The notes below the pieces were generated by a model. It worked only from the letters and a program-made list of their open reading frames with translations, made no database searches and was not told where the DNA came from. This document shows positions 6,396-35,757 of a stretch of 64,000 bases of DNA, piece after piece. Source of the stretch: Parcubacteria group bacterium. GTDB taxonomy: Bacteria > Patescibacteriota > Minisyncoccia > Phycocordibacterales > CSBR16-119. The stretch's first letter is position 1, and each line of letters starts with the position of its first letter. The DNA lies in assembly GCA_943356745.1 (NCBI GenBank), contig CALRFT010000001.1, positions 139,984 to 203,983 of the forward strand. Direction: 5' to 3'. A program made the position numbers and the translations under genes.

Positions 6396-6399
6396 GATA

Positions 6400-9142: not shown

Positions 9143-10288
9143 GTGAAAAAAAATAATAAAACCTATAAAGCTTGCATGAAATCGCTTACTCACAAAGTAG
9201 CGAATTTTTTATTTATGGATACAAATACAGAATATAAAGCACTCGTTGACGCAATGCCAAAAGGTCTTGAAGTTGACGCGATTGTAGAAGGAACTGTTAT
9301 CGCATTTGGAAAAGCATCAGTATTTATTGATGTTGCGCCATATGGAACAGGAGTTATTTACGGACGAGAATACAACAACGCTCGAGATGTTATCAAAAAT
9401 ATTAATATTGGAGATACAATCAAAGCTAAAATTGTAGATCGAGAAAACGAAAATGGATACATCGAACTTTCTTTGAAAGAAGCACGACAAGCGCTTATCT
9501 GGAAAGAAGCAGATGAAATCATGAACAATAAACAAGTTCTTGAACTTCCAATCAAAGAAGCAAACAAAGGAGGTCTTATTGTTGAATGGCGAGGAATCCA
9601 AGGATTTCTTCCAGCATCACAACTTAAGGCTGAACATTACCCACGAGTTGAAGATTCTGACAAAGATAAAATCTTGAAAGAATTAAAGAAACTTGTTGGA
9701 CAAGTTCTTCCACTTATGATGATTACAGTATCACCAAAAGAAGGAAAGCTTGTATTCTCTGAAAAAGAAGGAAACCAAGAAGAACGAATTGAACAAATTT
9801 CTAAATATGGACTAGGCGATGTTGTAACATGTGAAGTTGCAGGAATCGTAGACTTCGGAGTATTTCTTAAAATTGAAGAAGGAATCGAAGGACTTGTTCA
9901 CATTTCAGAACTTGATTGGGGTCTTGTAGAAAACCCACGAGAAATGTTCAAACTTGGATCAAAGATTCAAGCAAAAATTATTGAAATCAAAGATGGAAAG
10001 ATTTCACTTTCAATCAAAGCTTTGAAAGAAAATCCATGGAAAGAATTTGAAGGTCAACTTAAGAAAGGTGATATCGTGAAAGGAGCAGTGATTAAATTCA
10101 ACCGACACGGTGCACTTGTTTCTATCAAAGAAGGAGTTGCTGGACTTGTTCACAATTCACAATTTGGTGGAGAAGAAAAACTTCGAGAAGCACTTGAACT
10201 TGGAAAGTCTTACAACTTCCAACTCACACTTTTCGATGCATCAACACAAAAGATGACACTCGAATACTTGGATGCTAAAAAGGCATAA
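9143..10288 (+). CDS. rpsA: 30S ribosomal protein S1 (short form, about 4 S1 domains)
   Basis: Repeated S1 OB-fold motifs (GTVIAFGKASVFIDV; GDVVTCEVAGIVDFGVFLKI; GDIVKGAVIKFNRHGALVSI). Likely true start near 9215 (MDTNTEYK). Confidence 0.75.
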   Translation: MKKNNKTYKACMKSLTHKVANFLFMDTNTEYKALVDAMPKGLEVDAIVEGTVIAFGKASVFIDVAPYGTGVIYGREYNNARDVIKNINIGDTIKAKIVDRENENGYIELSLKEARQALIWKEADEIMNNKQVLELPIKEANKGGLIVEWRGIQGFLPASQLKAEHYPRVEDSDKDKILKELKKLVGQVLPLMMITVSPKEGKLVFSEKEGNQEERIEQISKYGLGDVVTCEVAGIVDFGVFLKIEEGIEGLVHISELDWGLVENPREMFKLGSKIQAKIIEIKDGKISLSIKALKENPWKEFEGQLKKGDIVKGAVIKFNRHGALVSIKEGVAGLVHNSQFGGEEKLREALELGKSYNFQLTLFDASTQKMTLEYLDAKKA

Positions 10289-10301
10289 ATAGTAACAAAA
10301 C

Positions 10302-10328
10302 AAAAAAGACCCGCAAGGGTCTTTTTTG
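10302..10328 (+). terminator. Intrinsic terminator after rpsA
   Basis: GACCC-gcaa-GGGTC hairpin followed by TTTTTT. Confidence 0.7.
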
Positions 10329-10649
10329 TTTTGTTAAAATAATCATTCTTTTTCCATTGATGAAAAAGAATCAAAAAATCTAGACACTCGCATTTTCTAC
10401 TAAAAACAAACATTCTTTTCTAAACATTACTAAACACTTCGCTTCTTTTCCGTCTTACGGACGGAAAAGCATAATGTTCTTAACGAAAAGGATGTTTGTT
10501 TTCTTCACGTGAGAATGTGAAAGTGTCAAAAAATCAGAAAACAACTCCTGCGAGCTTTTTTTGACTTCCAACAAATTTACACCTTTTGCCAAAATTAAGA
10601 TTGATTGCGTTATTAAATGATTTGATTTCTGCAATATAAATTATATACC

Positions 10650-11249
10650 TTAAACAAACTTATTTTTACCTCTCTCACGAAATTTCTTAAGAACCACCTG
10701 TTCTTCCGTAGTTAAGATATGATCACCTAACCCTGTTACTCTTAAGTATGTATTGAGCTCGCGAATACGGGCTGTTTGAAGCTCGCGAATACGGGCTGTT
10801 TGAAGCTCGCGAATACGGGCTGTCATATAACCAAAGTCTATTTTACCATTTTTTGTAATTGGTAGAAAAATTTTTTCATGTTGAATTTTTTTCCAGCTTG
10901 CCATGTTACTGTAAGAATAAAACTTCTTTAAAAATTGAAGTTGCGCAATGAAATAAAGACCCTCCTCAACAGAAAGTTCTTTTTCTTTAAAAGATAATGA
11001 AAAAACTCTTGCATGGGTAACCATTTTATATTCATGATTTCTAAAATAAACATATCCAAACATATCAACAGTGATTGTATTAGATTTGAATATTTTTGCT
11101 TTTATATCTGTTTTACCAATAATACCTGTATTAGTTTCTCCAGAACTTACGACAAAAATACCCTTGTTGTTAATATGAGTTTGTTGTATATCAAAATCAC
11201 CATTTTGTGGTTCAAATAATTCTGAGATTTTAAATTCTTTTTCTTTCAT
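10650..11249 (-). CDS. Restriction-modification specificity (HsdS-like) subunit, half-size with a single target-recognition domain
   Basis: TRD-like fold followed by a conserved helical region that contains a TARIRELQ x3 repeat. Lies 1 nt downstream of the MTase gene. Confidence 0.65.
   Translation of the reverse strand: MKEKEFKISELFEPQNGDFDIQQTHINNKGIFVVSSGETNTGIIGKTDIKAKIFKSNTITVDMFGYVYFRNHEYKMVTHARVFSLSFKEKELSVEEGLYFIAQLQFLKKFYSYSNMASWKKIQHEKIFLPITKNGKIDFGYMTARIRELQTARIRELQTARIRELNTYLRVTGLGDHILTTEEQVVLKKFRERGKNKFV
10757..10825 (-). repeat. Perfect 24-bp tandem repeat (about 2.8 copies) inside the specificity-subunit gene
   Basis: GCTCGCGAATACGGGCTGTTTGAA occurs at 10757-10780 and 10781-10804. 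A third copy from 10805 is identical for 19 nt. It encodes ARIRELQT repeats. Confidence 0.9.
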
Positions 11250-11250
11250 A

Positions 11251-13266
11251 CTATTCTCCTTTTAAAACACGAGAAACTTCCCAAGCAAGATAATCACTAA
11301 CTACTTTTTTAAAATCTTCTTCAGTTGGACGAGTGTCTACTATTTTATGTTGTGAAAATGTCCAGTCATTACCGTTGAGTGTGATTACATCCTCTATATA
11401 TTCATCTTTTGTAAGATATTTTAGATAATCTTTACCATATAAAACTAAATCAATTACTTCTTGGTATCTTTCTGTAGCATTATTTGTATTTTTCAAGTTT
11501 ACATCTTGACCAGATTTTTTACGATTTTGACGAGAGTACCCATCGTTAGAAAAATCAATAAATTTAACCTTTTGTTTTTCGTCATGTTTTTTACCTACTT
11601 CAAAAACATATATAGCTGTTTGCACGCCAGCTTTTCCTCGAAAAATATCTGCCATACGAATACTTGCAAGTAAAGTATTTTTCTCAAGAATTTCTTTAGT
11701 GTAGGGTAAACCATTACCACTTCCGGCATTTTCTTGAATCAAAATTACTGCTCGACCATTATTCATTTTACTGAGTCCTTTTTTAACGAAAACAAAACCC
11801 TTTCCATCTGCTGAGTACGGTGGATTAAGTAAAAAAACATTAGCTGGGAAATCTTTATTTTTATTTTCCCCTTGCTGATATTTACCTTCAAAGTTTTTTA
11901 AACTATCATCGTGGATAATGTTTGTTGATCCATCCCCCATTAAGATCATATTGAGAACAGCAAGTAAATAAATATCTGATCGTTTTTCAATTCCAAGTAA
12001 TTGTTTGTTTTTAATTTCTACAATTTTTTGATTTAATCTTTCTGGGCTCTTTATATTTTTAGTAGCGTCATCAATCATTAGTTTCATCGATGAAACAAGA
12101 AACCCAGCCGATCCTGTCGCGTAATCCCAAACATAAGAATCCATATCAACCTTAGCAAGTTTTGCCATTAATATCGTTACATAACGGGGAGTAAGCACCA
12201 CATCATTTTTATCGGAATCAGGAATATTTACCCAAGCATTCAATACATTAAACAATTTACCTGTAAAATCTAAATGGTAAGCTGATGTGAAAATTGGGAG
12301 AATATTTTTTTCAACAAACGAGTAGATAGTTTTTAGCTTACTCTCACCATTAATCGGTGTAGATAACCCAGAGGAAATAAATACTCTTGATAAATCAGTG
12401 ATTATCATTTCTTTCTTCTCTGTTGGCAAATCTCGTTTATCGAGAAAATCTGAAATTTTATTCAAAATAACCTTACCATCATTATTCTCTCTACCGGTTT
12501 CACCTCGTAAATCTGTAATTTCAAGTGGTGCGACTTTGTTTTCAACCCCAAGTCCTGCCATAAGCATACCTGTTAAAAGTTCTACTCTTGACCCAACAGA
12601 AATCTGTAAGTCATCTTGCATTTTTTGATTTAGTGCTTTGAGATTGACCTCAATTTCATTTTCAATTTTTTGACTACGTTGTTCAACTTCTTGTTGTGTA
12701 AGTTCCAGTTTTTGTACTTCAGCAATAAAATTTTCAAAATTATTTTTTGCTAAAAAAGACAAATCAGAATAGTTACCAACTTTTTTTGGTATTCCCATAT
12801 TTTTTGCAGAAACATAATAAATACCTAACTCTGTCTTTATGTCACCAGTCTTATCTTCATATCCATTAAATCCTATAGCAATTACCTCTTTATAAGAATC
12901 AGTAAAATCAATTATTGCCTTTGCATAGTGAACTGCGCCATTAACTGCAAATCCATTTATATTTGCAAAATTTGGTGAACCATCTTTTTTAATATTTTCT
13001 ATTTCACCAAAATCATTTATTTTTTCTAATTTTCCTGAAATACCTTTTACTTCAATCATTACTGGAAATAATTTTTTATCTTTTGTTTCAAGTAGTAATT
13101 TAATATCGGGGTAATTCTTACCATCACCGCCGGTTTTTGATGGAGCTTGAACCATGGCATTTGCAAGCTCACTATTTATATCTTCTGTTTTGATAAAATA
13201 CTTAAGTTCGGAAAACTCGAGTTGGCGCTTGGCAATATTCTCAATTTTTTCTTCAATACTTTTCAT
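11251..13266 (-). CDS. N6-adenine DNA methyltransferase subunit (gamma-class) with an N-terminal PD-(D/E)xK-like domain; BcgI-like Type IIB or Type I HsdM-like
   Basis: MTase motif I (DYATGSAGFL) and motif IV (NPPYS). The N-terminal ~200 aa have YPDIKLL..(x20)..MIEVKG, reminiscent of a PD-ExK nuclease core. The protein is 671 aa and no HsdR is nearby. Confidence 0.65.
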   Translation of the reverse strand: MKSIEEKIENIAKRQLEFSELKYFIKTEDINSELANAMVQAPSKTGGDGKNYPDIKLLLETKDKKLFPVMIEVKGISGKLEKINDFGEIENIKKDGSPNFANINGFAVNGAVHYAKAIIDFTDSYKEVIAIGFNGYEDKTGDIKTELGIYYVSAKNMGIPKKVGNYSDLSFLAKNNFENFIAEVQKLELTQQEVEQRSQKIENEIEVNLKALNQKMQDDLQISVGSRVELLTGMLMAGLGVENKVAPLEITDLRGETGRENNDGKVILNKISDFLDKRDLPTEKKEMIITDLSRVFISSGLSTPINGESKLKTIYSFVEKNILPIFTSAYHLDFTGKLFNVLNAWVNIPDSDKNDVVLTPRYVTILMAKLAKVDMDSYVWDYATGSAGFLVSSMKLMIDDATKNIKSPERLNQKIVEIKNKQLLGIEKRSDIYLLAVLNMILMGDGSTNIIHDDSLKNFEGKYQQGENKNKDFPANVFLLNPPYSADGKGFVFVKKGLSKMNNGRAVILIQENAGSGNGLPYTKEILEKNTLLASIRMADIFRGKAGVQTAIYVFEVGKKHDEKQKVKFIDFSNDGYSRQNRKKSGQDVNLKNTNNATERYQEVIDLVLYGKDYLKYLTKDEYIEDVITLNGNDWTFSQHKIVDTRPTEEDFKKVVSDYLAWEVSRVLKGE

Positions 13267-15241: not shown

Positions 15242-16537
15242 ATGGCACAAAAAGATTCTGGGAGACTCACCCACGCAAATATTCCGATCATACAAGAAAG
15301 TGAATACTACAACATTCAAGGAATGTTTGAAAAAATTCAAGAAATCGTGATGTATTATGGATTTATTCCTGTTCATCTTCCAATGATTGAACATGAAGAA
15401 TTCGTAGCAAAGGCTGCTGGAAAACAACCTGAGAAAATCACAGAAACACTCTATGGTGTCAAACAACCAAAAAGTGGCGACAAGCTTAGTCTTCTTCAAA
15501 CAACAGCACCGGGATTTATTCGAACATATATTGACGAAAACATGATCGCGCTTCCACAGCCGGTTATGATGTACCGTTTTGGTCCACGATACCAAAATCA
15601 AAAAAATGGAACTCATGAATCTTTCACCTTCGACCTTGAAGTTGTGGGATCAGAAAAAAGTATCATGGATGCTCTTTTGATACGACTTGCTGTTTTATCT
15701 ATCGAAGAACTTGGAGGAAAACATATTTTTGTTCACATTAATTCTCTTGGAGACAAAACATGTAGACAGCACTATATCAAAGAACTCTCAAACTACTATC
15801 GAAAACATATTAATTCTCTTGATAAAGATGATAGGCAACTTCTCAAGACAGATCCACTTCTTGTTCTTAATTCAGAAAAAGAAGGAACAAAAGAAGTAAA
15901 CGCAAACGTTCCAGATCCACTTAGTTTTCTGACAACTGAATGTAAGAAACAATTTAAAGAGGTTCTTGAATATCTTGATGAACTTGGAATCTCATATCGA
16001 ATAGACAAAAAGATTACGCATGAACTTGATTCTGATAGTCACACCATGTTTGAAATCCGAGGATACTCAGAAGACGAGGAAGGAAATCATGACGAAGTAA
16101 ACAGTGTTATTCTCGCGCGAGGTGGAAGACATGATAACTTGATTAAAATGCTTGGATCGAAGAAAGACATTCCAGCAGTTGGAGCATCTATCTATGTTCA
16201 ATCAATCATGTCTATGCCTTGGTTCAAACCACACAGCCCACGAAATCTCAAAGAACCGAAAGTATATTTCATTCAACTTGGAACAGAAGCGAAAATGAAA
16301 AGTCTTGCAGTACTTGAACATCTTCGAAAAGCAAAAATTCCTGTTATGAAAGCACTTTCAAAAGACAGTCTTCAAGCACAACTTTCTGTAGCTGAAAAAA
16401 TTGGTGTTCCATACACAATTATTTTTGGTCACAAAGAAGCTCTTGAAGGAACTGTTATCATTCGAGCAATGAAAAACAGATCTCAGAAAACAGTAAAAAT
16501 TGATAAAATGATTGAGGAATTGAAAAAGATTAAATAA
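15242..16537 (+). CDS. Histidyl-tRNA synthetase paralog (HisRS-like, catalytic motifs degenerate)
   Basis: Full-length class-II HisRS architecture including a C-terminal anticodon-binding domain (TTAPGFIRTYIDE; ARGGRHDNL; AVGASIYVQSI). Motif 2 reads YRFGPRYQNQKNGTHESF instead of FRxERPQxGRxRQF. Confidence 0.55.
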   Translation: MAQKDSGRLTHANIPIIQESEYYNIQGMFEKIQEIVMYYGFIPVHLPMIEHEEFVAKAAGKQPEKITETLYGVKQPKSGDKLSLLQTTAPGFIRTYIDENMIALPQPVMMYRFGPRYQNQKNGTHESFTFDLEVVGSEKSIMDALLIRLAVLSIEELGGKHIFVHINSLGDKTCRQHYIKELSNYYRKHINSLDKDDRQLLKTDPLLVLNSEKEGTKEVNANVPDPLSFLTTECKKQFKEVLEYLDELGISYRIDKKITHELDSDSHTMFEIRGYSEDEEGNHDEVNSVILARGGRHDNLIKMLGSKKDIPAVGASIYVQSIMSMPWFKPHSPRNLKEPKVYFIQLGTEAKMKSLAVLEHLRKAKIPVMKALSKDSLQAQLSVAEKIGVPYTIIFGHKEALEGTVIIRAMKNRSQKTVKIDKMIEELKKIK

Positions 16538-21510: not shown

Positions 21511-22836
21511 TTAAAAATCAATAGCTTGTTTTATAAGGTCTGAAAATTCGAAAGTCTTTTGTTCTCGAGTTTTAATATTTTTAATTGATACAGTTGTATT
21601 TTCTTCTTCCTCTGTCCCAAGAATCACCACATATGTTGCTTGTGTAGATTCTGCGTAGCTAAAAATATCTCTAAATTCATTTTTTGAACCAACATAAACA
21701 TCAACTACAGAATTATTTTTTCGAAGCTCCGAAGCAACTTGCGCGGTGTATGAATTTGGTTGCTGAGAAAATACTACAATTTTTTTATTCGTCACAAGAC
21801 TTTCGAGTGCGCCGATAGTTCGAAGCGCTGTCTCGAGACGATCAACACCAACAGAAACTCCAACTGCTGGAAGTGACTGACTTGTAAATCTTTCAACAAG
21901 ATTATCGTATCTTCCACCGGAAACCACCGAACCGAATTCGGGAGCAGAGAGAAGGTTTGTTTCAAACACCGGACCTGTATAGTATGCAAATCCACGAATA
22001 ATTTTCATATCAAAAATTACTTTATCTTCCACTCCGAAATTTTCTAGATATTCTGATATAGTTTCAAGTTCAACAATTCCGGCCTCTGCATCTTGAAAAT
22101 CACCAAAAAATTTTTTAAGTTCTTTAATTGCATCTTGTGGTTTTGCGGCAATATTTGAAAATTGTTTTATTTTTTCAATCCCATCTTCAGCAATTCGAAG
22201 TCTTCTTAATTCTTGAACAAGTTCTTCTTGAGAAATTTTTTCAGCCTTATCAAGAACAATTAAAACTTCTTTCAAAAGATTCTGAGGAAATGAAATAAAC
22301 TGTGGCAAAATATTAAGAATTGTTCGAGTGTTTACACGAACAATAAAATCAGAAACCTGTAGTTCTTTCATAATTTCAGTAATCATGAAAATTATTTCTG
22401 AATCAGCAATAAGATTTTTTGTTCCTACCATATCTGCATCAAACTGCATAAACTGTCGATATCTTCCCTTTTGAGGTCTTTCACCCCGGAAAACGTATCC
22501 TGCTTGATATCGTTTAAAAGGTCTTGGAAGTGCGTTTCCGTATTGACTCACCGCTCGAGCCAAAGGAACAGTAAGATCAAAGCGCAAGGCAACATCTTCT
22601 TTATCTCCACTCAAACGTTGACTTGTTGATTCAAGACGAAACAAATTAAAATCACTCGCGCTTTCAGAAATTAAAATATTCTCAAATTCTGCAACTGGTG
22701 TTTCAAGGGGCAAGAATCCAAATCTTTTATATACTCGAGTAATACATTCAATAATGTATTGTCTTCCAGCAGCTTCAGAAGGAAGAAGATCTCGAAATCC
22801 ACTTGGAGTATTAAGCTTATTTTCGTACATATTCAT
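21511..22836 (-). CDS. hisS: Histidyl-tRNA synthetase
   Basis: GFRDLLP, class-II motif 2 (RYQAGYVFRGERPQKGRYRQFMQFDADMVG), GGRYDNL and GVDRL. Confidence 0.9.
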   Translation of the reverse strand: MNMYENKLNTPSGFRDLLPSEAAGRQYIIECITRVYKRFGFLPLETPVAEFENILISESASDFNLFRLESTSQRLSGDKEDVALRFDLTVPLARAVSQYGNALPRPFKRYQAGYVFRGERPQKGRYRQFMQFDADMVGTKNLIADSEIIFMITEIMKELQVSDFIVRVNTRTILNILPQFISFPQNLLKEVLIVLDKAEKISQEELVQELRRLRIAEDGIEKIKQFSNIAAKPQDAIKELKKFFGDFQDAEAGIVELETISEYLENFGVEDKVIFDMKIIRGFAYYTGPVFETNLLSAPEFGSVVSGGRYDNLVERFTSQSLPAVGVSVGVDRLETALRTIGALESLVTNKKIVVFSQQPNSYTAQVASELRKNNSVVDVYVGSKNEFRDIFSYAESTQATYVVILGTEEEENTTVSIKNIKTREQKTFEFSDLIKQAIDF

Positions 22837-25926: not shown

Positions 25927-26787
25927 ATGACACTACAAAGAATTATTTCAATTAGTCGACCAAGGTTTTGGATATATGAATTTGGAACTTTTGCTTTTGG
26001 GGCAATCGCAGCCTTTTCAAGTTTTTCAAATTTATTAAACATACAAACTATCATTTTTGGTTTCTATTTTCTTATCCCTGCAAATATTCTTATTTATGGG
26101 ATCAATGATATTTTTGATTATGAGACAGATAAACTCAACCCTAAGAAAGTTGAATACGAAGAATTACTAGAACCAAAAGATCAGAAAAAAGTATGGTGGT
26201 GGATTATTCTCACAAACTTCCCATTTATAATTGCAGCCTTATCTCTTGAAACACCTGCAATGATTTCATTCTTTGCTTTTATATTCTTTGCAAGCTTCTA
26301 TTCAGCAAAACCAATTCGAGCAAAAGCAAGACCCTTCCTTGACGCGCTATTCTCAGCTTGTCACTACATTGCAACTGGAGTATTCGGATACTATCTTCTT
26401 GGTGGTGAATCTTTTCCAACTCTTGGTTTTGTCGCAGGAATACTTTGGGCAGTTGCAATGCATGCATATTCAGCAGTTCCAGATATCAAAGCAGATGAGG
26501 ATGCAAAACTTCAAACTATCGCAACAGTACTTCGAGAAAAAGGAACTCTCGTACTCTGTCTCATGCTTTATGGAATATCAGCATATCTCGGATCAACAGT
26601 CTTAGGAATTGGAGTTCTTATGTATGGACTTGTATATATAAGTCTTATGATTATTTCTCTCAAAAAAGTTGGACCAGGAGGAAGCGGACTCTTTAAAATC
26701 TATACTTATTTTCCATATATCAATCTGGTAGCGGGTGCAGTTATGACCATTTCACTACTTCTGGTTCACCCACTTATTTCAATATAA
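25927..26787 (+). CDS. UbiA-family prenyltransferase (in carotenoid cluster; possibly carotenoid-modifying)
   Basis: NDIFDYETDKLN (NDxxDxxxD) and VPDIKADEDAKL (second D-rich motif). About 8 TM helices. Confidence 0.6.
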   Translation: MTLQRIISISRPRFWIYEFGTFAFGAIAAFSSFSNLLNIQTIIFGFYFLIPANILIYGINDIFDYETDKLNPKKVEYEELLEPKDQKKVWWWIILTNFPFIIAALSLETPAMISFFAFIFFASFYSAKPIRAKARPFLDALFSACHYIATGVFGYYLLGGESFPTLGFVAGILWAVAMHAYSAVPDIKADEDAKLQTIATVLREKGTLVLCLMLYGISAYLGSTVLGIGVLMYGLVYISLMIISLKKVGPGGSGLFKIYTYFPYINLVAGAVMTISLLLVHPLISI

Positions 26788-26815
26788 AAAATCCCCATAA
26801 GGGGATTTTTTATAT
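26786..26815. terminator. Bidirectional terminator between UbiA-family gene and crtI
   Basis: AAAAAATCCCCATAAGGGGATTTTTT. Confidence 0.7.
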
Positions 26816-28330
26816 ATCATTCAAATCTTTGAGTGGTCTTGGGTGTTTAATTCCTCTAATTCGCTTATATGCAAGCTCTGAAGAAATAAGACAAATCGGC
26901 ATTCCAATTCCTGGATTTGTTCCAGCGCCAACATACAGAAGATTATCAATCTTTTTACTTTTATTTCCAGGACGGAGCAATGTTTGCTTGAGTGTATGAG
27001 CAAGTCCAAGTGCGGTACCTTGGAAAGCATTGTAATCTTTTTGGAAATCTTGATGAGCATATAAACTTTCATATTCAATCATGCCTTCAAGATTTGGAAT
27101 ATTTAAATCTTGCTTCATCATTCCAATGATCTTATCTCTATATTCCTTCTTTTGAGATTCAGAAAACTCGAGTCCTGCGGCCACAGGAACAAGAACGAAA
27201 AGCAAATCCTTACCTTCTGGCGCAATAGTTTTATCTGTTTTTGTTGGACAACAAACATAATAAGATGGATCATCTGGGAATTTTGGATTATCAAATACGT
27301 CTTTAAAATTATCCTTCCAATTTACAGAGAAACGAAGATTATGATGAGTAAGTGTCTTAACCTCTTGATTTAATCCAAGATAGATTATAAATGCCGACGG
27401 TCCCATCACTGCCTTATCCCAATACTTTTGTGGGAAGGTTCTATTTTTTTCTTCCTTTACAAGTTTCGTCTCTGTAAAATGCATATCTACATTTGAGATA
27501 ACATGATCAGGAAAAATAACCTCCCCGTTTTCCAACCTAACACCAGTTGCTTTCTTATCTTCAATAATAATTTCTGACACAGGTGTTCCAACTCGTATTA
27601 TAGTTCCATTTTTTCGAGCAATATTTTCCAATGCTTCTATGATTTTATAGATTCCTCCTTCTGGATAGTACACACCCATATCAAAATCTATGAAGTTCAT
27701 AATATTATACAAAGCCGGAGTTTTGTCTGGCGCTGAACCAAGAAAAACAAGAGTATATTCAAGAATTTTTTTCAATCGTTCATCTTGAAACCAACCATCA
27801 AGGTAAGATTCCATCGTTTGAAATGGGTTCATCTTGAGACCTTCTTTCAAAAAATCCATTTGAACGAAATCAAAAACTGAATTATAGTTCCGATACATAA
27901 ACTGCCGTTTTGCTAAGTCATACTGCTTTCCTGAACGTTCTAGATATTTTTTAATTTTTTCAGCAGAACCCTTTTCGAGTTTCTCAAACGTATCAAGATC
28001 CTTTGAAAGATCAGAGTATAAATCAAGGACCGGGAATTCCTTATCTCCTGGGAAAAATACTCTGTACGACGGAGAAAGTTTTATCAGATTAAGATGATCT
28101 TCTATTTTTTCATCAAGTAAAGAGAAAAAATGTTCAAAAATATCAGGCATGAGGTACCATGAAGGTCCCATGTCGAAAGTAAAACCTTTCTCTTTCAAAA
28201 GCCGAGCTCGGCCTCCAGTGGTTTCATTTTTTTCAAGAAGTGTCACTTGATATCCCTGCTTTGCTAAAAGACAAGCAGTTCCAAGTCCTCCAATTCCAGC
28301 TCCGATGATTACAATGTGTTCTTTTTTCAT
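26810..28330 (-). CDS. crtI: Phytoene desaturase (CrtI family FAD-dependent oxidoreductase)
   Basis: N-terminal Rossmann fold (HIVIIGAGIGGLGTACLLAKQGYQVTLLEKN..GGRA). About 500 aa. ATGA overlap with the crtB stop. Start chosen at MKKEH (28330). Confidence 0.75.
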   Translation of the reverse strand: MKKEHIVIIGAGIGGLGTACLLAKQGYQVTLLEKNETTGGRARLLKEKGFTFDMGPSWYLMPDIFEHFFSLLDEKIEDHLNLIKLSPSYRVFFPGDKEFPVLDLYSDLSKDLDTFEKLEKGSAEKIKKYLERSGKQYDLAKRQFMYRNYNSVFDFVQMDFLKEGLKMNPFQTMESYLDGWFQDERLKKILEYTLVFLGSAPDKTPALYNIMNFIDFDMGVYYPEGGIYKIIEALENIARKNGTIIRVGTPVSEIIIEDKKATGVRLENGEVIFPDHVISNVDMHFTETKLVKEEKNRTFPQKYWDKAVMGPSAFIIYLGLNQEVKTLTHHNLRFSVNWKDNFKDVFDNPKFPDDPSYYVCCPTKTDKTIAPEGKDLLFVLVPVAAGLEFSESQKKEYRDKIIGMMKQDLNIPNLEGMIEYESLYAHQDFQKDYNAFQGTALGLAHTLKQTLLRPGNKSKKIDNLLYVGAGTNPGIGMPICLISSELAYKRIRGIKHPRPLKDLNDI

Positions 28331-29172
28331 ATAAAGATTGATATAACAGTTATAATTTTTTTCTTCCAAGATGATAATACATGCTTTTTTGACCAAATAT
28401 CATAATTTGATTTTTCAATTTCGTCTAATATTCCTTCGTATTTACGAGCAGCAACTCTCAGTGGAAATTTTAGTTTCCAAGGTAAGTCTTCAATTCCAAC
28501 CCAAGCTTTTTGATACAAATCTCTACATCTTTGTATTTGAAATTTCATAAAATTTTTCCAGGCAGTTGAGTTTCTCTTAAGCTTGATATCTTCCAAGGAA
28601 ATTTCAAAATGATTCATTTCATCTTCTGGCATATACACCCTTCCCAATATTTCAAAATCTTCTTGTATATCACGCAAAAAATTTGTCATTTGCATAGCTT
28701 CAGCAAAAGCTTGTGCGCTCTTGAGTCTTTTCTGATCATATAAACCAAAGAAATGAAGCATTGTAAAACCTACAACAACTGCACTTCCGTACATATATTC
28801 TTCAAGGTCTACATAATTTGAATATTTTTTTTGTTCAACATCTTGAGACATTGCTTTCAAAAAAGCATCTGCATACTCAAGTGGGACGCGATATTGCTGA
28901 AACGCCTTTTTCATATACCAATGAATATCTTCAATATCTCGTTCGTCCTTCAAAGTCATTTGCCAGTCTTGTATCCAGGAATGTAAAAGTTTCGCTTTTG
29001 AATTTTGGTTTTCTTGCGCGTCAACATATTCATCAGCAGTGCGAACCCACGCATAATACAGGAAAACAACCTCACGAATTTTTCGAGGGAAAAAATTTGT
29101 CGCACGGTAATAATTTACACCATAGCGCTTTATTATATCTTGAGAAAATTGTAAGATTTCCTTATATGTCAT
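28327..29172 (-). CDS. crtB: Phytoene synthase (squalene/phytoene synthase family)
   Basis: YAWVRTADEYVD and MQMTNFLRDIQEDFEILGRVYMPEDE Asp-rich motifs. Confidence 0.8.
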   Translation of the reverse strand: MTYKEILQFSQDIIKRYGVNYYRATNFFPRKIREVVFLYYAWVRTADEYVDAQENQNSKAKLLHSWIQDWQMTLKDERDIEDIHWYMKKAFQQYRVPLEYADAFLKAMSQDVEQKKYSNYVDLEEYMYGSAVVVGFTMLHFFGLYDQKRLKSAQAFAEAMQMTNFLRDIQEDFEILGRVYMPEDEMNHFEISLEDIKLKRNSTAWKNFMKFQIQRCRDLYQKAWVGIEDLPWKLKFPLRVAARKYEGILDEIEKSNYDIWSKKHVLSSWKKKIITVISIFI

Positions 29173-29178
29173 AGTGTT

Positions 29179-30213
29179 TTACATTCTTGCCTCCAGTCGA
29201 TTAAGGACATCTAAAAATGCTTCTGTTGTCTTTTTTGAAAAATTTCCAATCTCGATAGATTTTCTTATTTTCTTGAAAGATTTTTCCATTTCCTTATATG
29301 TAAACATCTTAGTTCCAGTTTCTTCAAAAAGCGCTTGTAACACTTTGTTATGTTTTGACGAAAAAGATGTTCCATAAAACTTCATAAAAATATTTTTTTG
29401 ATCTTCAGTTGCATGTTTTAAAAAATGATCAGTAAGTAAGGTTTGTTGTCCTTCTCGAATATCATTCATTATTTCTTTTTTAAGAATTTGCTCTGAACCA
29501 AACATATCAAGATAATCATCTTGAACTTGAAATAAAATCCCAATCTGTTCACCTATAGAAAACATTTTTTTCTGTGTATCTTCAGAAACTTTACCAAGCA
29601 AACAACCAATCTGAAATGGTCTCGAAAAAGTATACAACGCTGTTTTATATTTTGTTTTTCTAGTAATTAATTTAGTATCAGCCTGAGGATATGATGCAAG
29701 TTTTACATCAATCATTTGACCAACAATAACCTCATCAAGTAATTGGATTATTTCACTAAAAACATCTTGAGATGCTTTTGATTCAGAGAGCGCCTGGAAA
29801 GCTGCAGCATACAAAAGATCACCCACGAGAATTGCTTGCGAGTTTGAATAGTGAGTTTTGTCACCACGAACAATTTTTTGATTTTTTTCAATAAACCCAT
29901 TTATCGAGGGGACGTCTCTTCGAGTTAAAGCCTTATCAATAACATCATCATGAATCAAGGCCAATGCATGAATAAGCTCAACAGCTATCATAACCAACCA
30001 GTGAGAATCCTGTAGCTTTTTTCCAGATTCTAAAATACCAATGTAAATACTATATGGACGAAGCCTTTTTCCTCCTTGTAAATATAAATCAACATGCTCA
30101 ATAAAAGCTTCGATATCCTTATCTTTTGCAAGCATTTTATAACTCTTTATTTTTTTATGCGTAAAAACAAAAAAACGCTTATCAAATTCTTGGGAAAATT
30201 GTTGTAAATTCAT
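29179..30213 (-). CDS. crtE: Polyprenyl (geranylgeranyl) diphosphate synthase
   Basis: FARM (ALIHDDVIDKA) and SARM (FQVQDDYLDMFG) motifs. Confidence 0.8.
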   Translation of the reverse strand: MNLQQFSQEFDKRFFVFTHKKIKSYKMLAKDKDIEAFIEHVDLYLQGGKRLRPYSIYIGILESGKKLQDSHWLVMIAVELIHALALIHDDVIDKALTRRDVPSINGFIEKNQKIVRGDKTHYSNSQAILVGDLLYAAAFQALSESKASQDVFSEIIQLLDEVIVGQMIDVKLASYPQADTKLITRKTKYKTALYTFSRPFQIGCLLGKVSEDTQKKMFSIGEQIGILFQVQDDYLDMFGSEQILKKEIMNDIREGQQTLLTDHFLKHATEDQKNIFMKFYGTSFSSKHNKVLQALFEETGTKMFTYKEMEKSFKKIRKSIEIGNFSKKTTEAFLDVLNRLEARM

Positions 30214-30236: not shown

Positions 30237-30270
30237 AAAAGAAAAGCCTGCATCAAAGCAGGCTTTTCAA
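30237..30270 (-). terminator. Intrinsic terminator upstream of crtE operon, downstream of 111-aa membrane protein gene
   Basis: AAGCCTGC-atcaa-AGCAGGCTT followed by a T-rich run on the minus strand. Confidence 0.5.
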
Positions 30271-30588
30271 GATCCAGGCAACGGTAACAGGAACAAGGAA
30301 CAAAATAAAATTCACCCCAGGAACTCCGTTTTGAGCAGCATTCCAAGATTCACAAGATGCTGGAAATCTTCTTTCTTTAAATGTGCGAGACCAGAAATTA
30401 CCAGCTCTGATAATCCTAATTCCCCACCAGTGTATCCCAGCAGAAACCACACTGAGTAAAAATATTACCCCAACGATTATCTTTATCTCTATTTCAGGCA
30501 TACAAAATATTCTATACCACAAATAGATAAATAGTAAACAAAATACAGTGAGGGTAACCCAGAATCTTTTTTGTGCTTTTGTGTACAT
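30253..30588 (-). CDS. Small membrane protein (111 aa); weak resemblance to lycopene-cyclase-domain proteins
   Basis: Three hydrophobic helices. CMPEIEI resembles the hPhEE motif of CrtYc/d-type cyclase domains (weak). Confidence 0.3.
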   Translation of the reverse strand: MYTKAQKRFWVTLTVFCLLFIYLWYRIFCMPEIEIKIIVGVIFLLSVVSAGIHWWGIRIIRAGNFWSRTFKERRFPASCESWNAAQNGVPGVNFILFLVPVTVAWILKSLL

Positions 30589-30664
30589 GATACTTAATTT
30601 TGTATTACTCTAACCTGTAAAAATAAGTAAGTCAATAAAGTAAAAGTCTATCTCGATTTATAAT

Positions 30665-32140
30665 ATGTTTATGAAAAAAATTGGACTTATATTTCCCCAT
30701 CAACTTTTTAAAAATAATCCCCTGCTCAAAATAGTTGATACTGTATATCTCATAGAAGACTCTTTGTTTTTTGGAGATAAGCATAACCATCTTTCTTTTC
30801 ATAAAATGAAAATAGCTTTTCATAGAGCGACTATGAAAAGCTACGAAGATTTTTTAAAAGAGAAAAATATTTCTGTTGAATATATTTCTTATAAAAAAGA
30901 AATTACTATTCGTGATATTGCAAAGAAATTACAAAGACATCAAATATTTGTGATTGATCCGACAGATTACCTATTGGAAAAAAGAATTCGAGAAAGTTTT
31001 AATTCTCCAACCTTCGTTGAAAATCCTCTTTTTATAAATACCAAAGAAGAAAATCAAAAATTCATCAAAACTCAATCTAAACTTCTCATGTATAATTTTT
31101 ATGTACACCAGAGAAAAAAATTGAATATTTTGATTGACTCAAAGGGAAAACCTACAGGTGGAAAATGGTCATTTGATGAAGATAATCGAAAAAAGATTCC
31201 TCAAAAAGAATATAAAAATATTCCAGAAAAAATTGAATCTCGAACAAATGACTACACAGAAGAAGCTAAAAAATATACAGAAAAAAATTTCAAAAATAAT
31301 CCCGGAAATTTAGAAACTTTTATATATCCAACTAATCATCAAGAAGCTGAGAAATGGTTCAATGACTTTCTTTCAAAACGTTTCGAAAAATTTGGACCAT
31401 ATGAAGATGCAATACTCGAAGATTATTCAATTCTTTACCATTCCCTACTTTCACCACTTCTCAACATTGGACTTCTTGAACCAAAATATATAGTTGAAAA
31501 AGCACTGTTATATGCCCACAAACATAATATCCCCATCAATTCAATTGAAGGTTTTATTAGGCAAATTATTGGCTGGCGAGAATACATGCGTCTTGTATAT
31601 GAACTTCATGGAACACAGATGAGAAAACAAAATATCTGGAAACACAAAAACAAACTACCTCTATCTTTCTACACTGGAGAAACTGGACTTGTGCCTGTTG
31701 ATCAAACCATACAAAAAATAAATAATCTCGCATATTGTCACCACATTGAAAGACTTATGGTTTTAGGAAACAGTATGTTTTTACTTGAAATAGAACCTGA
31801 TGAAGTTTACAAATGGTTCATGGAAATGTTTATTGACGCCTATGACTGGGTAATGGTGCCAAATATTTACGCAATGAGTCAAAATAGCGTTGGAGACTTG
31901 ATCACAACCAAACCCTACATATCTGGCTCAAATTACATCTTGAAAATGAGCGACTTCAAAAAAGATACCTGGTGTGACGTGTGGGATAGTATGTATTGGG
32001 TGTTTGTTTCAAAACACCATACTACTTTAGCTAAAAATTTTCGTATGAACATCATCGCAAAAAAAGCTCAAGATATGGACAATCAAAAGCTAGAGTCCCA
32101 TAAAAAAATACTAAGAGATTTTAAAAAACACATACTATGA
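30665..32140 (+). CDS. Cryptochrome/photolyase-family protein (photolyase-related, COG3046-like)
   Basis: IRQIIGWREYMRLVYE, NNLAYCHHIERLMVLGNSMFL and AYDWVMVPNIYAMSQ are typical of photolyase-related FAD-binding proteins. Confidence 0.7.
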   Translation: MFMKKIGLIFPHQLFKNNPLLKIVDTVYLIEDSLFFGDKHNHLSFHKMKIAFHRATMKSYEDFLKEKNISVEYISYKKEITIRDIAKKLQRHQIFVIDPTDYLLEKRIRESFNSPTFVENPLFINTKEENQKFIKTQSKLLMYNFYVHQRKKLNILIDSKGKPTGGKWSFDEDNRKKIPQKEYKNIPEKIESRTNDYTEEAKKYTEKNFKNNPGNLETFIYPTNHQEAEKWFNDFLSKRFEKFGPYEDAILEDYSILYHSLLSPLLNIGLLEPKYIVEKALLYAHKHNIPINSIEGFIRQIIGWREYMRLVYELHGTQMRKQNIWKHKNKLPLSFYTGETGLVPVDQTIQKINNLAYCHHIERLMVLGNSMFLLEIEPDEVYKWFMEMFIDAYDWVMVPNIYAMSQNSVGDLITTKPYISGSNYILKMSDFKKDTWCDVWDSMYWVFVSKHHTTLAKNFRMNIIAKKAQDMDNQKLESHKKILRDFKKHIL

Positions 32141-32616
32141 GAAAATTATGGAATCATGCCCCTTACCCTATTTGGAGTTTATCAACTTTGAACAATACAG
32201 GCACATGCAACATGAATATATGCAGTTATGTAACTCCAATTTCAATGAAACCAAAAGAATTTATTGTTGGGATATATTACAATACTCAAACCTTTGAAAA
32301 TATTTCAAAAACAAAACATGGACTCCTGCAACTGCTAGCAAAAGACCAAGATCATCTCGTGCGTCAATTGGGTAAGAAAAGTTCTCTCAAGACAAACAAA
32401 ATGAAAAAAATTCTAAAAGAAGAGTCTGTGGGAACACATAATTCTTATACTTATCTACGAGAATGTATTGGATATATCGAACTTGAATTTTATAAAATTA
32501 TAAAAACTTCTGGAGATCATGCGATCGGTATCGCGAGAATGAAAAGTTATAGAAGTTTACAAAACAAGCAGACACTCACATTGCAAGACCTGCAAGAAAA
32601 AAATATAATCTTATGA
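32137..32616 (+). CDS. Flavin-reductase-like (FMN-binding split-barrel) protein
   Basis: [45 protein letters not shown] pattern. ATGA overlap with the upstream photolyase gene. Confidence 0.4.
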
Positions 32617-32762
32617 GTAAAGATCCAAGAAAAGAAATCAAGCTATGCAAAACATGCCAAAGACCTTTCCATAATAGAAAAAAATGGGAGTCGAGAGGGT
32701 TGTGGGAAAATATTTTATATTGCAGCGATGCCTGTCGCAATAAGAAAAAAACCAAGCTTTAA
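32613..32762 (+). CDS. DUF2256-like zinc-ribbon small protein (49 aa), not in ORF track
   Basis: [49 protein letters not shown]. Has CxxC..RKKW..YCSxxCR pattern. ATGA overlap with the upstream gene. Confidence 0.55.
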
Positions 32763-33340
32763 TCTTGGTTTTTTTCTTGTATTGTTTTATAAAAAATTAT
32801 CTTAGTATAGATATCAAGAATAATGTATCCTATCATTGCATACGTGAGTGGAATAATACCAAACCCCTCTGGAGACAAGAGAAAAATAATGGGAAATACA
32901 GACCATCCAAAGATAATATATGGACGAACACGTTTAAATAATTCTTTATTTCCTGTTGTTAATTTTTGCACCATAACAGCATAAAACAGTGAACCAATCA
33001 CAAACCAGACGATCATAACAATACCTTGTGAAAGTGAAGCAAGTGCGCCTGTTAACATAACAAAGGGAGTAACAAATAAAATAGTACGTGTATTATCTTT
33101 ATTTATTCCAAGATACTGAGCCATAACCCAAGCAAGTAAAGCACAACTCACAGCGTATCCAATCCATCTAATATATGGTGCGGTACCGAGTTGGAGCATG
33201 AGAGTATAAGACACAGTCGTAATAGCACTTACAATAAATGCTGAATTGAATTCTTTTTTTCTCCACCCAAACCAAAATACAATGCTACTAATAAGAAATA
33301 AAACTATCGCAAAAATATTTGCTATAAAAATATTATTCAT
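32759..33340 (-). CDS. Compact seven-helix microbial-rhodopsin-like protein (193 aa) with Lys at the Schiff-base position
   Basis: Seven hydrophobic helices. The helix F/G region [35 protein letters not shown] aligns without gaps to bacteriorhodopsin [35 protein letters not shown]. Helix [16 protein letters not shown] matches KKFYAITTLVPAIAFTMYLSML. Helix C reads RWIGYAVSC. Confidence 0.55.
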
Positions 33341-33361
33341 ACGGTATCAATATATCATATA

Positions 33362-34498
33362 TTAGTGAGCATGAGCACAGCCCTCATGTTTTTCCTTTTC
33401 ACTCAGGGGTTTACCTTTACTATCCTCAAGAAATACAGCGGCGAGAAATGTTGTGAGAGGCACAGACAAAATAAGTCCAATACTTCCGATAATTGTTCTT
33501 ACTATTTCTGTTGCAAAAACCTCACTATTCAAAACAAGTCCAACATCTGAAACACCAAGAGTTGAAACATAAAGTATGAGCGGAAGCCCAACTCCAACAT
33601 ATGCAAGGACAAGAGTATTAACCAAAGCCGAAACATGTTCTTTTCCAACACGAAGCGCCCGAGTAAATACATCCTTTCTGTTTAAATTTGGATTCGCACT
33701 ATACAACTCTCTCACCACAGCAACCTGGGTGATTGAGATATCATCAAGAACTCCGAGAACTCCAATAATAATACTTGCAAGAAGTAGCCCCACAAAATCA
33801 AGTGCAACACCGCTATTAAAATCAAGATAAGTTGCCTCGTGACTACCAAATCCACTCAAATGTGTTCCAGAAACAGCCCAAGAAGCAATTATTCCGGTCA
33901 CAACGACAGTCGCTACTGTTCCAGAAAATGCAATAAGAGAACGTTTATTAAAACCGTGAGTCAGAAAAATTGCAAGCGCCAAAAGAACAGTTGCAATTAT
34001 CACACTCGTCAAAATAGGAGGTGCGCCTTTCAAAAGAAGAGGAACAAGAACGTACACAATAACAAGTATTGAAGTTCCAAGACTTACAAGCGAACGAAGT
34101 CCTTGCCATTTTGCAAATACAAGAATAAGTACAACAAAAGCAAGAACAAGCCAAGTGAGTCCATTCCTTCTATCAAAATCAACTAGACGGTACTCAGGAT
34201 TTTGTCCTTCTTCGAGATATTCTTCGACTAAAAAATTATCTCCCTTTGAAAGACCAAGATAGTCTTGTTCAACGATAATCTCATCTCCTGTAAAATTCCC
34301 TTCTCGTAATACAGCTCTAATGGTTTGCACTATGTAATCTCGACCATTTTGAAATTCAACATCAACAGGAACTTGTTCAACTACTTCAATAACTTCTGCT
34401 TCTATGATCTGAACCGTAGAATTAATTTGGTCGTCACTTTGAGCAAACAAAAAACTTGGGATCAATAGAAAACCAAAAAGAAATAATATTTTTTTCAT
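33362..34498 (-). CDS. YibE/F-like polytopic membrane protein with N-terminal signal peptide and soluble domain
   Basis: Signal peptide, ~100-aa periplasmic domain, then about 8 TM helices. Ends HEGCAHAH. Lies 21 nt upstream of the rhodopsin-like gene. Confidence 0.4.
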   Translation of the reverse strand: MKKILFLFGFLLIPSFLFAQSDDQINSTVQIIEAEVIEVVEQVPVDVEFQNGRDYIVQTIRAVLREGNFTGDEIIVEQDYLGLSKGDNFLVEEYLEEGQNPEYRLVDFDRRNGLTWLVLAFVVLILVFAKWQGLRSLVSLGTSILVIVYVLVPLLLKGAPPILTSVIIATVLLALAIFLTHGFNKRSLIAFSGTVATVVVTGIIASWAVSGTHLSGFGSHEATYLDFNSGVALDFVGLLLASIIIGVLGVLDDISITQVAVVRELYSANPNLNRKDVFTRALRVGKEHVSALVNTLVLAYVGVGLPLILYVSTLGVSDVGLVLNSEVFATEIVRTIIGSIGLILSVPLTTFLAAVFLEDSKGKPLSEKEKHEGCAHAH

Positions 34499-34533: not shown

Positions 34534-34558
34534 ATATTTGCAAATGATTTGCAAATAT
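34534..34558. promoter_or_regulatory. 25-bp perfect palindrome (ATATTTGCAAAT-G-ATTTGCAAATAT), candidate Zur/Fur-family operator in divergent promoter
   Basis: Perfect inverted repeat centred on G. Immediately followed by TATACT (34560-34565). Sits between the divergent yibE/F-like and ZIP-zur genes. Confidence 0.45.
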
Positions 34559-35417
34559 GTATACTATGGTGTATATGAATACAAACTTAGCTATTATTAC
34601 AGCACTTGGGATTGCAATACTTTCCTTTTCAGGTGCCTTACTTTCATTCAAAAAGATTAACTCTTGGTTCTCTCAAAAAATTAAATTCCTCACAATATTT
34701 GCTGCCGGTGTTTTCACTATGACATCACTAGGACTCATGAGTGAAACTTTTGAATTTCTTCCAAAAAACACAGCTGTTATTTCTATTCTTGGTGGTTTTA
34801 TTGGGATGCTTATTCTTCATAAAATTCTTCCAGAAACCCACCACCATCACGACAAAGATTGTGAATCTTGCATATCTCCAAAAAGCGGTCCTAAACTTTT
34901 AGTAGGTGATATGATCCACAATATTGCTGACGGTATTGTACTTGTTGCAGCTTTTACCGTTTCAAAAGAAGTAGGTATTATTGCAACATTTAGTATTGCA
35001 ATTCATGAGTTTATTCAAGAAATTTCAGAATATATTGTTCTTCGAAATTCTGGATACTCAATTAAGAAAACACTTATTCTTAATTTCATCTCATCACTTT
35101 CTATTTTTATTGGAGTTATAGTTGGACTTCTTTTGACGCAAGACCCAGAGTTTCAAGCAATACTTTTGGGAATATCTGCGGGAGCATTTCTCCATATTGT
35201 ATTTCACGATCTTATTCCTTATGATTCAATGAGAAAAATAAACAAAAAAGCTTCTTGGAATTATATTGGAGTATTTTTACTCGGAATTACTCTTATGATC
35301 GCTGTCGGTTTCTCAATGCCTCATACACATGAACATGGAGATTCAGAAGATATACACCATCATGAAAATGAAGAGATTTTGTTACTAGAAGAAGACCATA
35401 ATCATTCACATGAATAA
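34557..35417 (+). CDS. ZIP-family zinc transporter (ZupT-like)
   Basis: His-rich loop (HHHHDKD), HNIADGIVLVAAF and AIHEFIQEISEYIVL motifs. The true start is probably 34566 or 34575, since the ORF-track start lies inside the operator. Confidence 0.7.
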   Translation: MYTMVYMNTNLAIITALGIAILSFSGALLSFKKINSWFSQKIKFLTIFAAGVFTMTSLGLMSETFEFLPKNTAVISILGGFIGMLILHKILPETHHHHDKDCESCISPKSGPKLLVGDMIHNIADGIVLVAAFTVSKEVGIIATFSIAIHEFIQEISEYIVLRNSGYSIKKTLILNFISSLSIFIGVIVGLLLTQDPEFQAILLGISAGAFLHIVFHDLIPYDSMRKINKKASWNYIGVFLLGITLMIAVGFSMPHTHEHGDSEDIHHHENEEILLLEEDHNHSHE

Positions 35418-35757
35418 GCTTACAAGTAAAGGTGAATTAATTTTAAAAACCCTTCAGCACATGAAGGGTTTTTGTACTGCACAAGAAATTCATAAAAAAG
35501 TTCCGGAAATTAATCTTACTACTGTATATAGAAACCTTGAAAGATTTTCAGATTCAGGACTAGTACAAAAGATTTCACTTCCCCACCAAGAATTTGCTTA
35601 TGAGTTTAGTGAACACAAACACCATCACACAATTTGTGATTCTTGCAGTAATATCAAACACATTACTCTACCTGCAAAAGTCTTACGAGAAATACCTGAA
35701 CTTTCTCACTTTGACCCTGATTCAATAGAAGTTATTATTCGAGGTAAATGTAAATAA
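35410..35757 (+). CDS. Fur-family transcriptional regulator (likely Zur)
   Basis: HTH (CTAQEIHKKV..NLTTVYRNLERF) and metal site HKHHHTICDSC. Overlaps the ZIP gene stop. Confidence 0.7.
   Translation: MNKLTSKGELILKTLQHMKGFCTAQEIHKKVPEINLTTVYRNLERFSDSGLVQKISLPHQEFAYEFSEHKHHHTICDSCSNIKHITLPAKVLREIPELSHFDPDSIEVIIRGKCK

Follow-up and report, generated by a model that had tools for sequence, protein, structure and literature searches.

We analyzed a 64,000-nucleotide stretch of a Parcubacteria group bacterium (assembly GCA_943356745.1, contig CALRFT010000001.1, positions 139,984 to 203,983; hereafter the window, whose own numbering is used throughout) and found that it encodes a 193-aa rhodopsin with an unusual set of active-site residues. 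On the basis of sequence comparison and structure prediction, there is very little doubt that this protein belongs to the bacterial clade of the schizorhodopsin (SzR/AntR) family, and its family membership and retinal-binding architecture are established in silico. The family is already known; the new part is a natural variant that combines the loss of the family's Phe and Glu with an RND-like partner gene of the YibE/F type. We judge the chances to be slightly better than even that the window rhodopsin is a light-driven inward proton transporter without a cytoplasmic carboxylate.

The gene and the tools that support its identification are as follows:

32759 to 33340, minus strand: schizorhodopsin-family gene, 193 aa (open reading frame, Pfam, PDB matches, AlphaFold2, Foldseek and alignment)

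The open reading frame (ORF) comprises 193 codons from ATG to stop. Residues 8-183 match the Pfam Bac_rhodopsin profile with 60.1 bits (E = 2.8e-16), well above the curated cut-off of 24.6 bits. The heliorhodopsin profiles, the second comparison that an earlier note on this DNA had proposed, stayed below threshold (17.7 versus 26.7 bits in Pfam, 17.2 versus 100 in NCBIfam), and the NCBIfam scan returned nothing useful for either the rhodopsin or YibE_F. An AlphaFold2 model computed from an alignment of 49 sequences (pLDDT 94.5, pTM 0.89) contains seven helices (residues 3-25, 33-51, 57-77, 81-103, 106-127, 132-155, and 165-191) connected by loops of 2-9 residues, and its fold neighbors are type-1 rhodopsins. 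Key residues were mapped in a MAFFT alignment that included bacteriorhodopsin (BR):

BR R82: window rhodopsin R58
BR D85: window rhodopsin G61
BR T89: window rhodopsin S65
BR T90: window rhodopsin C66
BR D96: window rhodopsin V72
BR W182: window rhodopsin W146
BR P186: window rhodopsin P150
BR D212: window rhodopsin D176
BR K216: window rhodopsin K180

Y62 and L69 (the latter at the BR L93 position) are also retained, and the helix-7 motif DxxxK reads DIYTK, with D176 and K180 at its ends. Given the TM score of 0.92 between the model and AntR, K180 is predicted to face the retinal pocket. This mapping bears out the earlier note's description of a seven-helix rhodopsin with a Schiff-base Lys and an Asp212 equivalent, and likewise its reading of G/S/V at the BR D85/T89/D96 positions. 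The gene is under purifying selection, as 62 of the 135 residues identical to those of a 70%-identical homologue are encoded by a different codon. Furthermore, five or more lineages have kept the ORF intact, with the Lys, the counterion and the pocket residues invariant.

Schizorhodopsins are inward pumps for protons, driven by light and about 200 residues long, with shortened cytoplasmic helix ends, a neutral residue at the D85 position and one Asp counterion on helix G (PMC7148096, PMC8040798). The best PDB sequence match of the window rhodopsin is AntR (Antarctic Rhodopsin, 9or2; E = 7e-34 over residues 6-190), followed by SzR4 (7e4g; E = 6e-17), while no other family scores better than 6e-8; BR matches through helices F-G only (query 122-183, E ~1e-4 to 1e-6). 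Foldseek places AntR (three crystal structures, TM 0.91-0.92) and then SzR4 (0.86-0.89) in the top six, after which other type-1 rhodopsins are listed. In a neighbor-joining (NJ) tree the protein nests among bacterial SzR representatives. Homologues number 43 cluster representatives at E<=1e-10, and full-length homologues measure 188-215 aa. The window rhodopsin has the neutral D85-position residue (G61) and the single Asp counterion (D176) of the family, and its S65, C66 and L69 (BR T89, T90 and L93 positions) are nearly invariant across the 49 sequences. It departs from the family at two sites, with Gly61 in place of Phe at the BR D85 position and Val72 in place of Glu/Asp at the BR D96 position. 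The same two residues, G61 and V72, leave it without the D85 and D96 carboxylates of the outward pumps (BR and proteorhodopsin).

The earlier note had presented an unusually small BR-like protein. A length of ~190-210 aa is the norm for SzRs, and since these are proteins of about 200 aa with a neutral D85-position residue, both the ultra-compact size and the absence of D85 and D96 are family traits. A new ultra-compact BR-like class with a motif foreign to pumps and sensors could draw on the helix F-G similarity to BR and on the non-canonical triad; however, SzR members share the size and the neutral residue, sequence, profile and fold all lead to SzR, and we consider such a class almost certainly wrong. 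Nor is a protein of this kind out of place in a genome of the candidate phyla radiation (CPR), as had been supposed: according to a 2025 preprint, Patescibacteria supply a large share of known SzRs, and most bacterial SzRs fall into a single clade in which Patescibacteria, cyanobacteria and Anaerolineae predominate (10.1101/2025.10.15.682728). The nearest genome-derived homologue is from a Candidatus Nomurabacteria metagenome-assembled genome (L001; 57% identity for the SzR and ~67% for YibE_F), and the YibE_F homologue P0146 is annotated as Patescibacteria group bacterium; taken with the gene content, these relatives make a host of the Patescibacteria type most likely.

AntR (9or2/9ork/9ot0) is the closest solved relative, at 38-41% identity. 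The two proteins share R, Y, S, C, L, W, P, DxxxK and a C-terminal FY motif (Y184 corresponds to AntR Y193), whereas AntR has F-S-E with D30/R84/Y193 and the window rhodopsin G-S-V with E30/Q75/Y184 at the same positions; the B-C loop is also much shorter in the window clade. The Asgard-archaeal SzR4 and SzR1 (7e4g) have the same fold, ~200 aa, a short cytoplasmic side, the helix-G Asp counterion and the essential helix-C Ser-Cys-Leu, but only ~30% identity, and their E81, N34, T195 and F70 are V72, A34, I187 and G61 in the window rhodopsin, from which the SzR4 B-C beta-hairpin is deleted. The paSzR and psSzR proteins of Patescibacteria and cyanobacteria belong to the same bacterial clade and share the host phylum; as described in the preprint, their group has Gly at the site in transmembrane helix 6 occupied by Phe153 in SzR4 (G145 in the window rhodopsin), and paSzR and psSzR are F-S-E proteins shown to be inward proton pumps, in contrast to the G-S-V of the window rhodopsin (10.1101/2025.10.15.682728). 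With BR and the outward pumps it has in common the type-1 fold and the R82/W182/P186/D212/K216 equivalents, but identity to BR is ~20%, the D85 acceptor and D96 donor are missing, and the protein is ~50 residues shorter. Xenorhodopsins are inward proton pumps too but use other acceptor residues (PMC8040798), and they and the chloride pumps are distant (E ~1e-5). Finally, there is a weak helix-C likeness to heliorhodopsin (the 17.7 Pfam bits, over residues 35-100), as has been reported for the SzR family, but heliorhodopsins carry SxxxK in the seventh helix, whereas the window rhodopsin has DxxxK and a type-1 fold.

The departure from the family is thus best described at the level of the triad, F-S-E in the family versus G-S-V here, with both the Phe and the cytoplasmic Glu lost. 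The earlier note had called the motif atypical of known pumps, which is correct insofar as the D-T-D of BR is absent; the proper yardstick, however, is F-S-E, and losses from it recur in bacterial SzRs. The Phe was termed completely conserved in SzR and AntR in 2021 (PMC8040798), and E/D was already missing in 5 of 63 SzRs in 2020 (PMC7148096). Sampling 20, 49 and 85 sequences showed the bacterial clade to have GSV, GSS, GSA, GSH, GST, ASV, FSS, FST and FSK triads; the first position varies among F/G/I/L/V/A/C and the third among E/D/S/T/V/H/A/K/Q, and many of its representatives have no acidic residue at the BR D96 position. At least three NJ lineages carry GSV, and G-S-S loci were found in Paceibacteria (L004, L009). 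The window's own clade consists of the window rhodopsin and P0002-P0005 (51-99% identity). This is a rare group: clustering at 50% identity leaves a single representative of it among 1.84 billion, and a clade-specific scan of JGI metagenomes recovered no close relatives beyond the window's own lineage. The B-C loop of this clade lacks the beta-hairpin found in SzR4 and BR and has 7 residues in the alignment (Q50-R58), compared with 12-24 in other SzRs, which puts the window rhodopsin at the short end of the family. The text available from the 2025 preprint mentions neither a G-S-V member nor a linkage to YibE/F (10.1101/2025.10.15.682728).

One member of this clade lies in a setting of its own. 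P0005, 51% identical to the window rhodopsin, is a GSV-type SzR encoded at 1028-1606 of a 1938-bp contig with a GC content of 31% (L050; Logan SRR24908163), directly 3' of a KR2-type sodium-pump rhodopsin gene (118-930; 270 aa, N-D-Q triad, E = 1.6e-76 to KR2). Both genes have in-frame TGA codons (4 and 10) where relatives carry Gly; the stored protein shows Trp there. Genetic code 25, known from CPR bacteria of the Gracilibacteria/Absconditabacteria type, thus appears to be in use in this organism.

Immediately upstream of the window rhodopsin lies the partner gene:

33341 to 33361, minus strand: 21-nt spacer from the YibE_F stop to the rhodopsin ATG, with no terminator-like site (sequence, terminator scan)
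33362 to 34498, minus strand: YibE/F-family membrane protein, 378 aa (Pfam, model)

The match to Pfam YibE_F covers the full profile (232.7 bits versus a cut-off of 27.2). The protein comprises a signal-like N-terminal helix, an extracellular beta domain (28-108), about six transmembrane helices and a His-rich C-terminal tail, and its transmembrane region contains an invariant GxxGVLDD motif whose DD pair is predicted to lie within the membrane. The modeled fold resembles RND/sterol-sensing-domain transporters. Our literature search for functional studies of the YibE/F family returned none, only noise or the unrelated E. coli yibF. Because the short spacer has no terminator-like site, the two genes are likely co-transcribed; the corresponding spacers are 25-31 nt in L047, L044 and L048. 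The pairing recurs in the loci of P0002 (SzR 70% identical; Zip present too), P0003 (57%; Nomurabacteria, with an otherwise different neighborhood) and P0004 (59%). In L059 (Ga0222633_1002103, 78-2993), only an IS3-type element, with HTH_Tnp_2 and rve ORFs, separates YibE_F from an A-S-A-type SzR, each ~45% identical to its counterpart in the window; before the element inserted, the two genes probably lay side by side. Once loci redundant at 90% identity were removed, 5 of the 10 informative G/A-S-non-acidic SzR loci had YibE_F no more than 2 kb upstream on the same strand, against 0 of the 25 others (Fisher p = 8e-4, not corrected for shared ancestry). On the other hand, two relatives (L056 and L057) keep YibE_F without a rhodopsin, so YibE_F is independent of the rhodopsin, which tempers the idea of coupling; the linkage is thus weakened by these relatives and partly restored by L059.

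In the mechanism that we favor, all-trans retinal would form a protonated Schiff base with K180, and D176 would be its sole counterion. Light would isomerize the retinal, and transient water along helix C (S65, C66, L69) would carry the Schiff-base proton to the cytoplasm close by, with no carboxylate serving as a way-station; the short cytoplasmic side of the protein would be the site of this direct release. V72 would replace the family Glu and be tolerated as in AntR E81Q, and G61 would replace the family Phe at a position that stays neutral, as the family requires. Reprotonation of the Schiff base from outside would complete a net inward transport of protons. The gene is probably expressed together with the RND-like YibE/F gene and sits inside a variable block of light-related genes, and the retinal is probably taken up from outside or made by enzymes encoded beyond the window.

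Mutational studies of characterized relatives bear on each of these sites. In SzR4, S74A, C75A/S/T, L78A and D184N abolish transport, and E81 is likewise required (PMC8040798); the window rhodopsin keeps the equivalents of S74, C75, L78 and D184, as well as R58 and K180, whose counterparts are also essential in SzR4, and differs at E81 only. SzR1 F70A is a normal pump whereas F70D and F70E are dead (PMC7148096), so that neutrality rather than size seems to matter and a neutral Gly61 should be tolerated. AntR E81Q pumps about like the wild type, and a D30-R84-Y193 network has been proposed to stand in for the Glu in AntR (PMC8040798). Every characterized member of the SzR family is an inward proton pump (10.1101/2025.10.15.682728). 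A patescibacterial protein expressed earlier bears the name GSS_AntR, which, along with the G-S-S loci of Paceibacteria, suggests that a G-S-S member has been produced and is active.

Several points weigh against inward pumping. E81Q abolishes pumping in both SzR1 and SzR4 (PMC7148096, PMC8040798), and the partners of SzR4 E81, N34 and T195, are replaced as well (A34, I187). Of the AntR network positions, which read E30/Q75/Y184 in the window rhodopsin, the first is occupied by Q or P in its nearest relatives, P0002-P0005, so the clade has no conserved cytoplasmic carboxylate. Our literature search did not confirm inward pumping by any G-S-x SzR from a primary source. In addition, an inward pump offers no obvious benefit to a co-transcribed transporter that is probably proton-driven, and the 64-kb window contains neither blh nor a lycopene cyclase.

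Some of these points could be read differently. If proton transport was lost together with the Glu, which is essential in SzR1 and SzR4, the photocycle might instead modulate the YibE/F transporter or another partner, making the protein a photosensor or regulator similar to heliorhodopsins, which have been proposed to regulate partner proteins. The excess of YibE_F upstream of G/A-S-non-acidic SzRs would fit such a role, as would the fact that the pairing spans lineages with otherwise different neighborhoods, including the one with a later IS3-type insertion. We nevertheless regard a sensor as unlikely: half of the G/A-S-x loci have no YibE_F, L056 and L057 keep a YibE_F that is 75-81% identical without any rhodopsin, the association statistic ignores shared ancestry, and helix C strictly conserves the residues that transport needs (S65, C66, L69), with no transducer-like gene or fused signaling domain present. 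A change of specificity or direction, to an inward anion pump, an outward proton pump or a light-gated leak, seems to us unlikely as well. In halorhodopsin the residue at D85 is small and neutral, that at T89 is Ser and that at D96 is non-polar, with D212 retained, and both BR D85 substitutions and the TSA motif yield chloride pumps. The G61/S65/V72 triad (small, Ser, small-hydrophobic), in which Gly stands in for a bulky Phe beside the Schiff base, with R58 and D176 kept resembles the T-S-A of halorhodopsin, and the GSV-type SzR behind a sodium pump in L050 suggests roles in ion homeostasis. An outward pump could moreover energize YibE/F, whose model is like proton-driven RND transporters and has an invariant DD pair predicted to lie within the membrane. 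Yet Ser is the only anion-site residue evident, and in NaCl SzR1 F70A continues to pump protons inward normally. Attempts to convert SzR1 at the F70 position killed function and did not reverse its direction (PMC7148096), and the characterized family members all pump protons inward.

That the gene encodes an inactive protein, either decaying or a chromophore-less remnant, is very improbable. The absence of blh and lycopene cyclase and the dispensability of the rhodopsin block in close relatives are in its favor, but the purifying selection is strong and the ORF and its functional residues persist across lineages as described above; the retinal-gene search covered the 64-kb window, and CPR rhodopsins that use external retinal are documented. 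A broader proposal is that G/A-S-V/A SzRs, having lost Phe and Glu, form a two-gene module with the RND-like YibE/F in which light gates or powers transport. The rhodopsin of such a module might, for instance, pump another ion or in the other direction, or might switch the transporter in response to light. We consider this proposal unlikely, and retain inward proton transport as the preferred reading.

Downstream of the rhodopsin, and converging on it, is an operon that encodes a photolyase-related protein, a flavin reductase and DUF2256 (30665..32762):

30253 to 30588, minus strand: small membrane ORF, 111 aa (82 aa as otherwise called), upstream of polyprenyl synthase (tblastn)
30665 to 32140, plus strand: DPRP-type photolyase/cryptochrome-related protein (Pfam)
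32137 to 32616, plus strand: flavin reductase (Pfam)
32613 to 32762, plus strand: DUF2256 (Pfam)
32740 to 32780, no strand: hairpin AAAAAAACCAAG ... CTTGGTTTTTTT with a 12-bp stem and A and T runs at its flanks (terminator scan, sequence)

The stop codons of the rhodopsin and DUF2256 genes overlap by 4 bp inside the hairpin loop, and the hairpin is a candidate bidirectional terminator. Comparison with the rhodopsin-less relatives shows that the rhodopsin and the photolyase-like operon together constitute an indel of ~2.7 kb, since both are absent from L056 and L057. L056 (YibE_F 75% identical) has Fur-Zip-YibE_F, the small ORF and crtE-crtB-crtI-UbiA, with no rhodopsin and no DPRP operon, and L057 (81%) lacks the rhodopsin, the DPRP operon and the carotenoid genes. 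The small ORF, matched by tblastn at 5483-5818 of L056 and 2321-2653 of L057, marks one edge of the indel, as it follows YibE_F directly in these relatives. Window positions 30589-33361 thus compare with 5427-5482 in L056 and 2274-2320 in L057, and no rhodopsin remnants were found in these gaps after YibE_F.

Similar neighbors occur beside SzRs of other lineages. A DPRP gene adjoins the SzR in L004 (3757-6401; G-S-S type, then MsrB) and in L033 (6001-7656; F-S-E type), and a flavin reductase adjoins it in L009 (5203-6585). This suggests that SzRs are recurrently associated with genes for light damage or oxidative stress. Heliorhodopsin genes, too, have been discussed as linked by neighborhood to genes for photolyase and oxidative stress.

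On its other side, YibE_F diverges from a pair of metal-related genes:

34534 to 34558, no strand: perfect 12-1-12 palindrome ATATTTGCAAAT-G-ATTTGCAAATAT, between the divergent Zip and YibE_F genes (sequence)
34557 to 35417, plus strand: ZIP-family metal transporter (Pfam)
35410 to 35757, plus strand: Fur-family regulator (Pfam)

Zip, Fur and YibE_F form a conserved backbone beside the rhodopsin, with synteny in L047, L056 and L057. The palindrome core TTGCAAAT-N-ATTTGCAA is conserved in these three loci, where Zip is only 45-80% identical, and is absent in L001/L044, which are without Zip; the palindrome is likely a Zur-type operator of the adjacent Fur/Zur-family regulator. The earlier note had placed a putative Zur operator over the yibE/F-rhodopsin unit. 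The palindrome is indeed there, but it overlaps the Zip promoter-like site and not that of YibE_F, which leaves zinc control of the rhodopsin unproven. YibE_F-SzR pairs also exist without Zip or the palindrome (L001/L044).

Beyond the small ORF lie the carotenoid genes:

25927 to 26787, plus strand: UbiA prenyltransferase (Pfam)
26810 to 28396, minus strand: phytoene desaturase (Pfam)
28327 to 29172, minus strand: phytoene synthase (Pfam)
29179 to 30213, minus strand: polyprenyl synthase (Pfam)

The gene context that the earlier note had outlined (YibE_F, photolyase-related operon and carotenoid genes) was recovered in full by Pfam matches. Among the ~50 window ORFs scanned, there was no match to Blh or lycopene-cyclase families, in agreement with the note's statement that no retinal-forming gene is recognizable in the window. 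A small lycopene cyclase might have been encoded by the small ORF at 30253-30588, but this idea was discarded, as the ORF matched no Pfam family. Rhodopsin-bearing Saccharibacteria without blh are known, and their rhodopsins take external retinal (10.1101/2022.02.13.480300). The carotenoid genes are kept in the rhodopsin-less L056 and absent from L057. The UbiA-family gene adjoins phytoene desaturase, and this pair is conserved in L056. We take this arrangement to recall the lycopene elongases of C50-carotenoid pathways, and for that reason the carotenoid genes may not serve retinal synthesis.

A few further features of the window were recorded. Two histidyl-tRNA-synthetase-like genes lie less than 7 kb apart (15242-16537, plus strand; 21511-22836, minus strand), of which the first has a much weaker tRNA-synt_His match and may be HisZ-like or a divergent paralogue. 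A full-length bacterial 16S rRNA gene is present on the minus strand (56522-58054; 1533 nt, model positions 1-1533). No 23S rRNA gene was detected anywhere in the window and protein-coding genes follow the 16S gene, so the rRNA genes appear to be unlinked. Lastly, the region 4977-13266 may be mobile or involved in surface interaction: it encodes a secreted protein with LTD/PKD domains, an ATPase resembling type IV secretion coupling proteins (6400-8412) and the paired S and M genes of a type I restriction-modification system (10650-13266).

What inward proton pumps do for the cell is not established, and the SzR mechanism is debated, the Glu being essential in the archaeal members and dispensable in AntR. 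A selected natural variant that has neither the Phe nor any cytoplasmic carboxylate conserved in its clade provides a ready-made way of testing the untrapped proton-release model. The host organisms are unculturable. The recurrent pairing with an uncharacterized, RND-like and probably proton-coupled transporter is a specific, testable functional lead; further ones are the repeated proximity to genes of photolyase type and of oxidative stress, and the tandem with a sodium-pump rhodopsin in a bacterium with code 25. If the window rhodopsin is an ordinary inward pump, it adds one more motif variant to a known family and nothing beyond. If the SzR-YibE/F module were true, it would be the first rhodopsin-coupled RND-type transporter and would give SzRs a concrete physiological role in bacteria without a respiratory chain.

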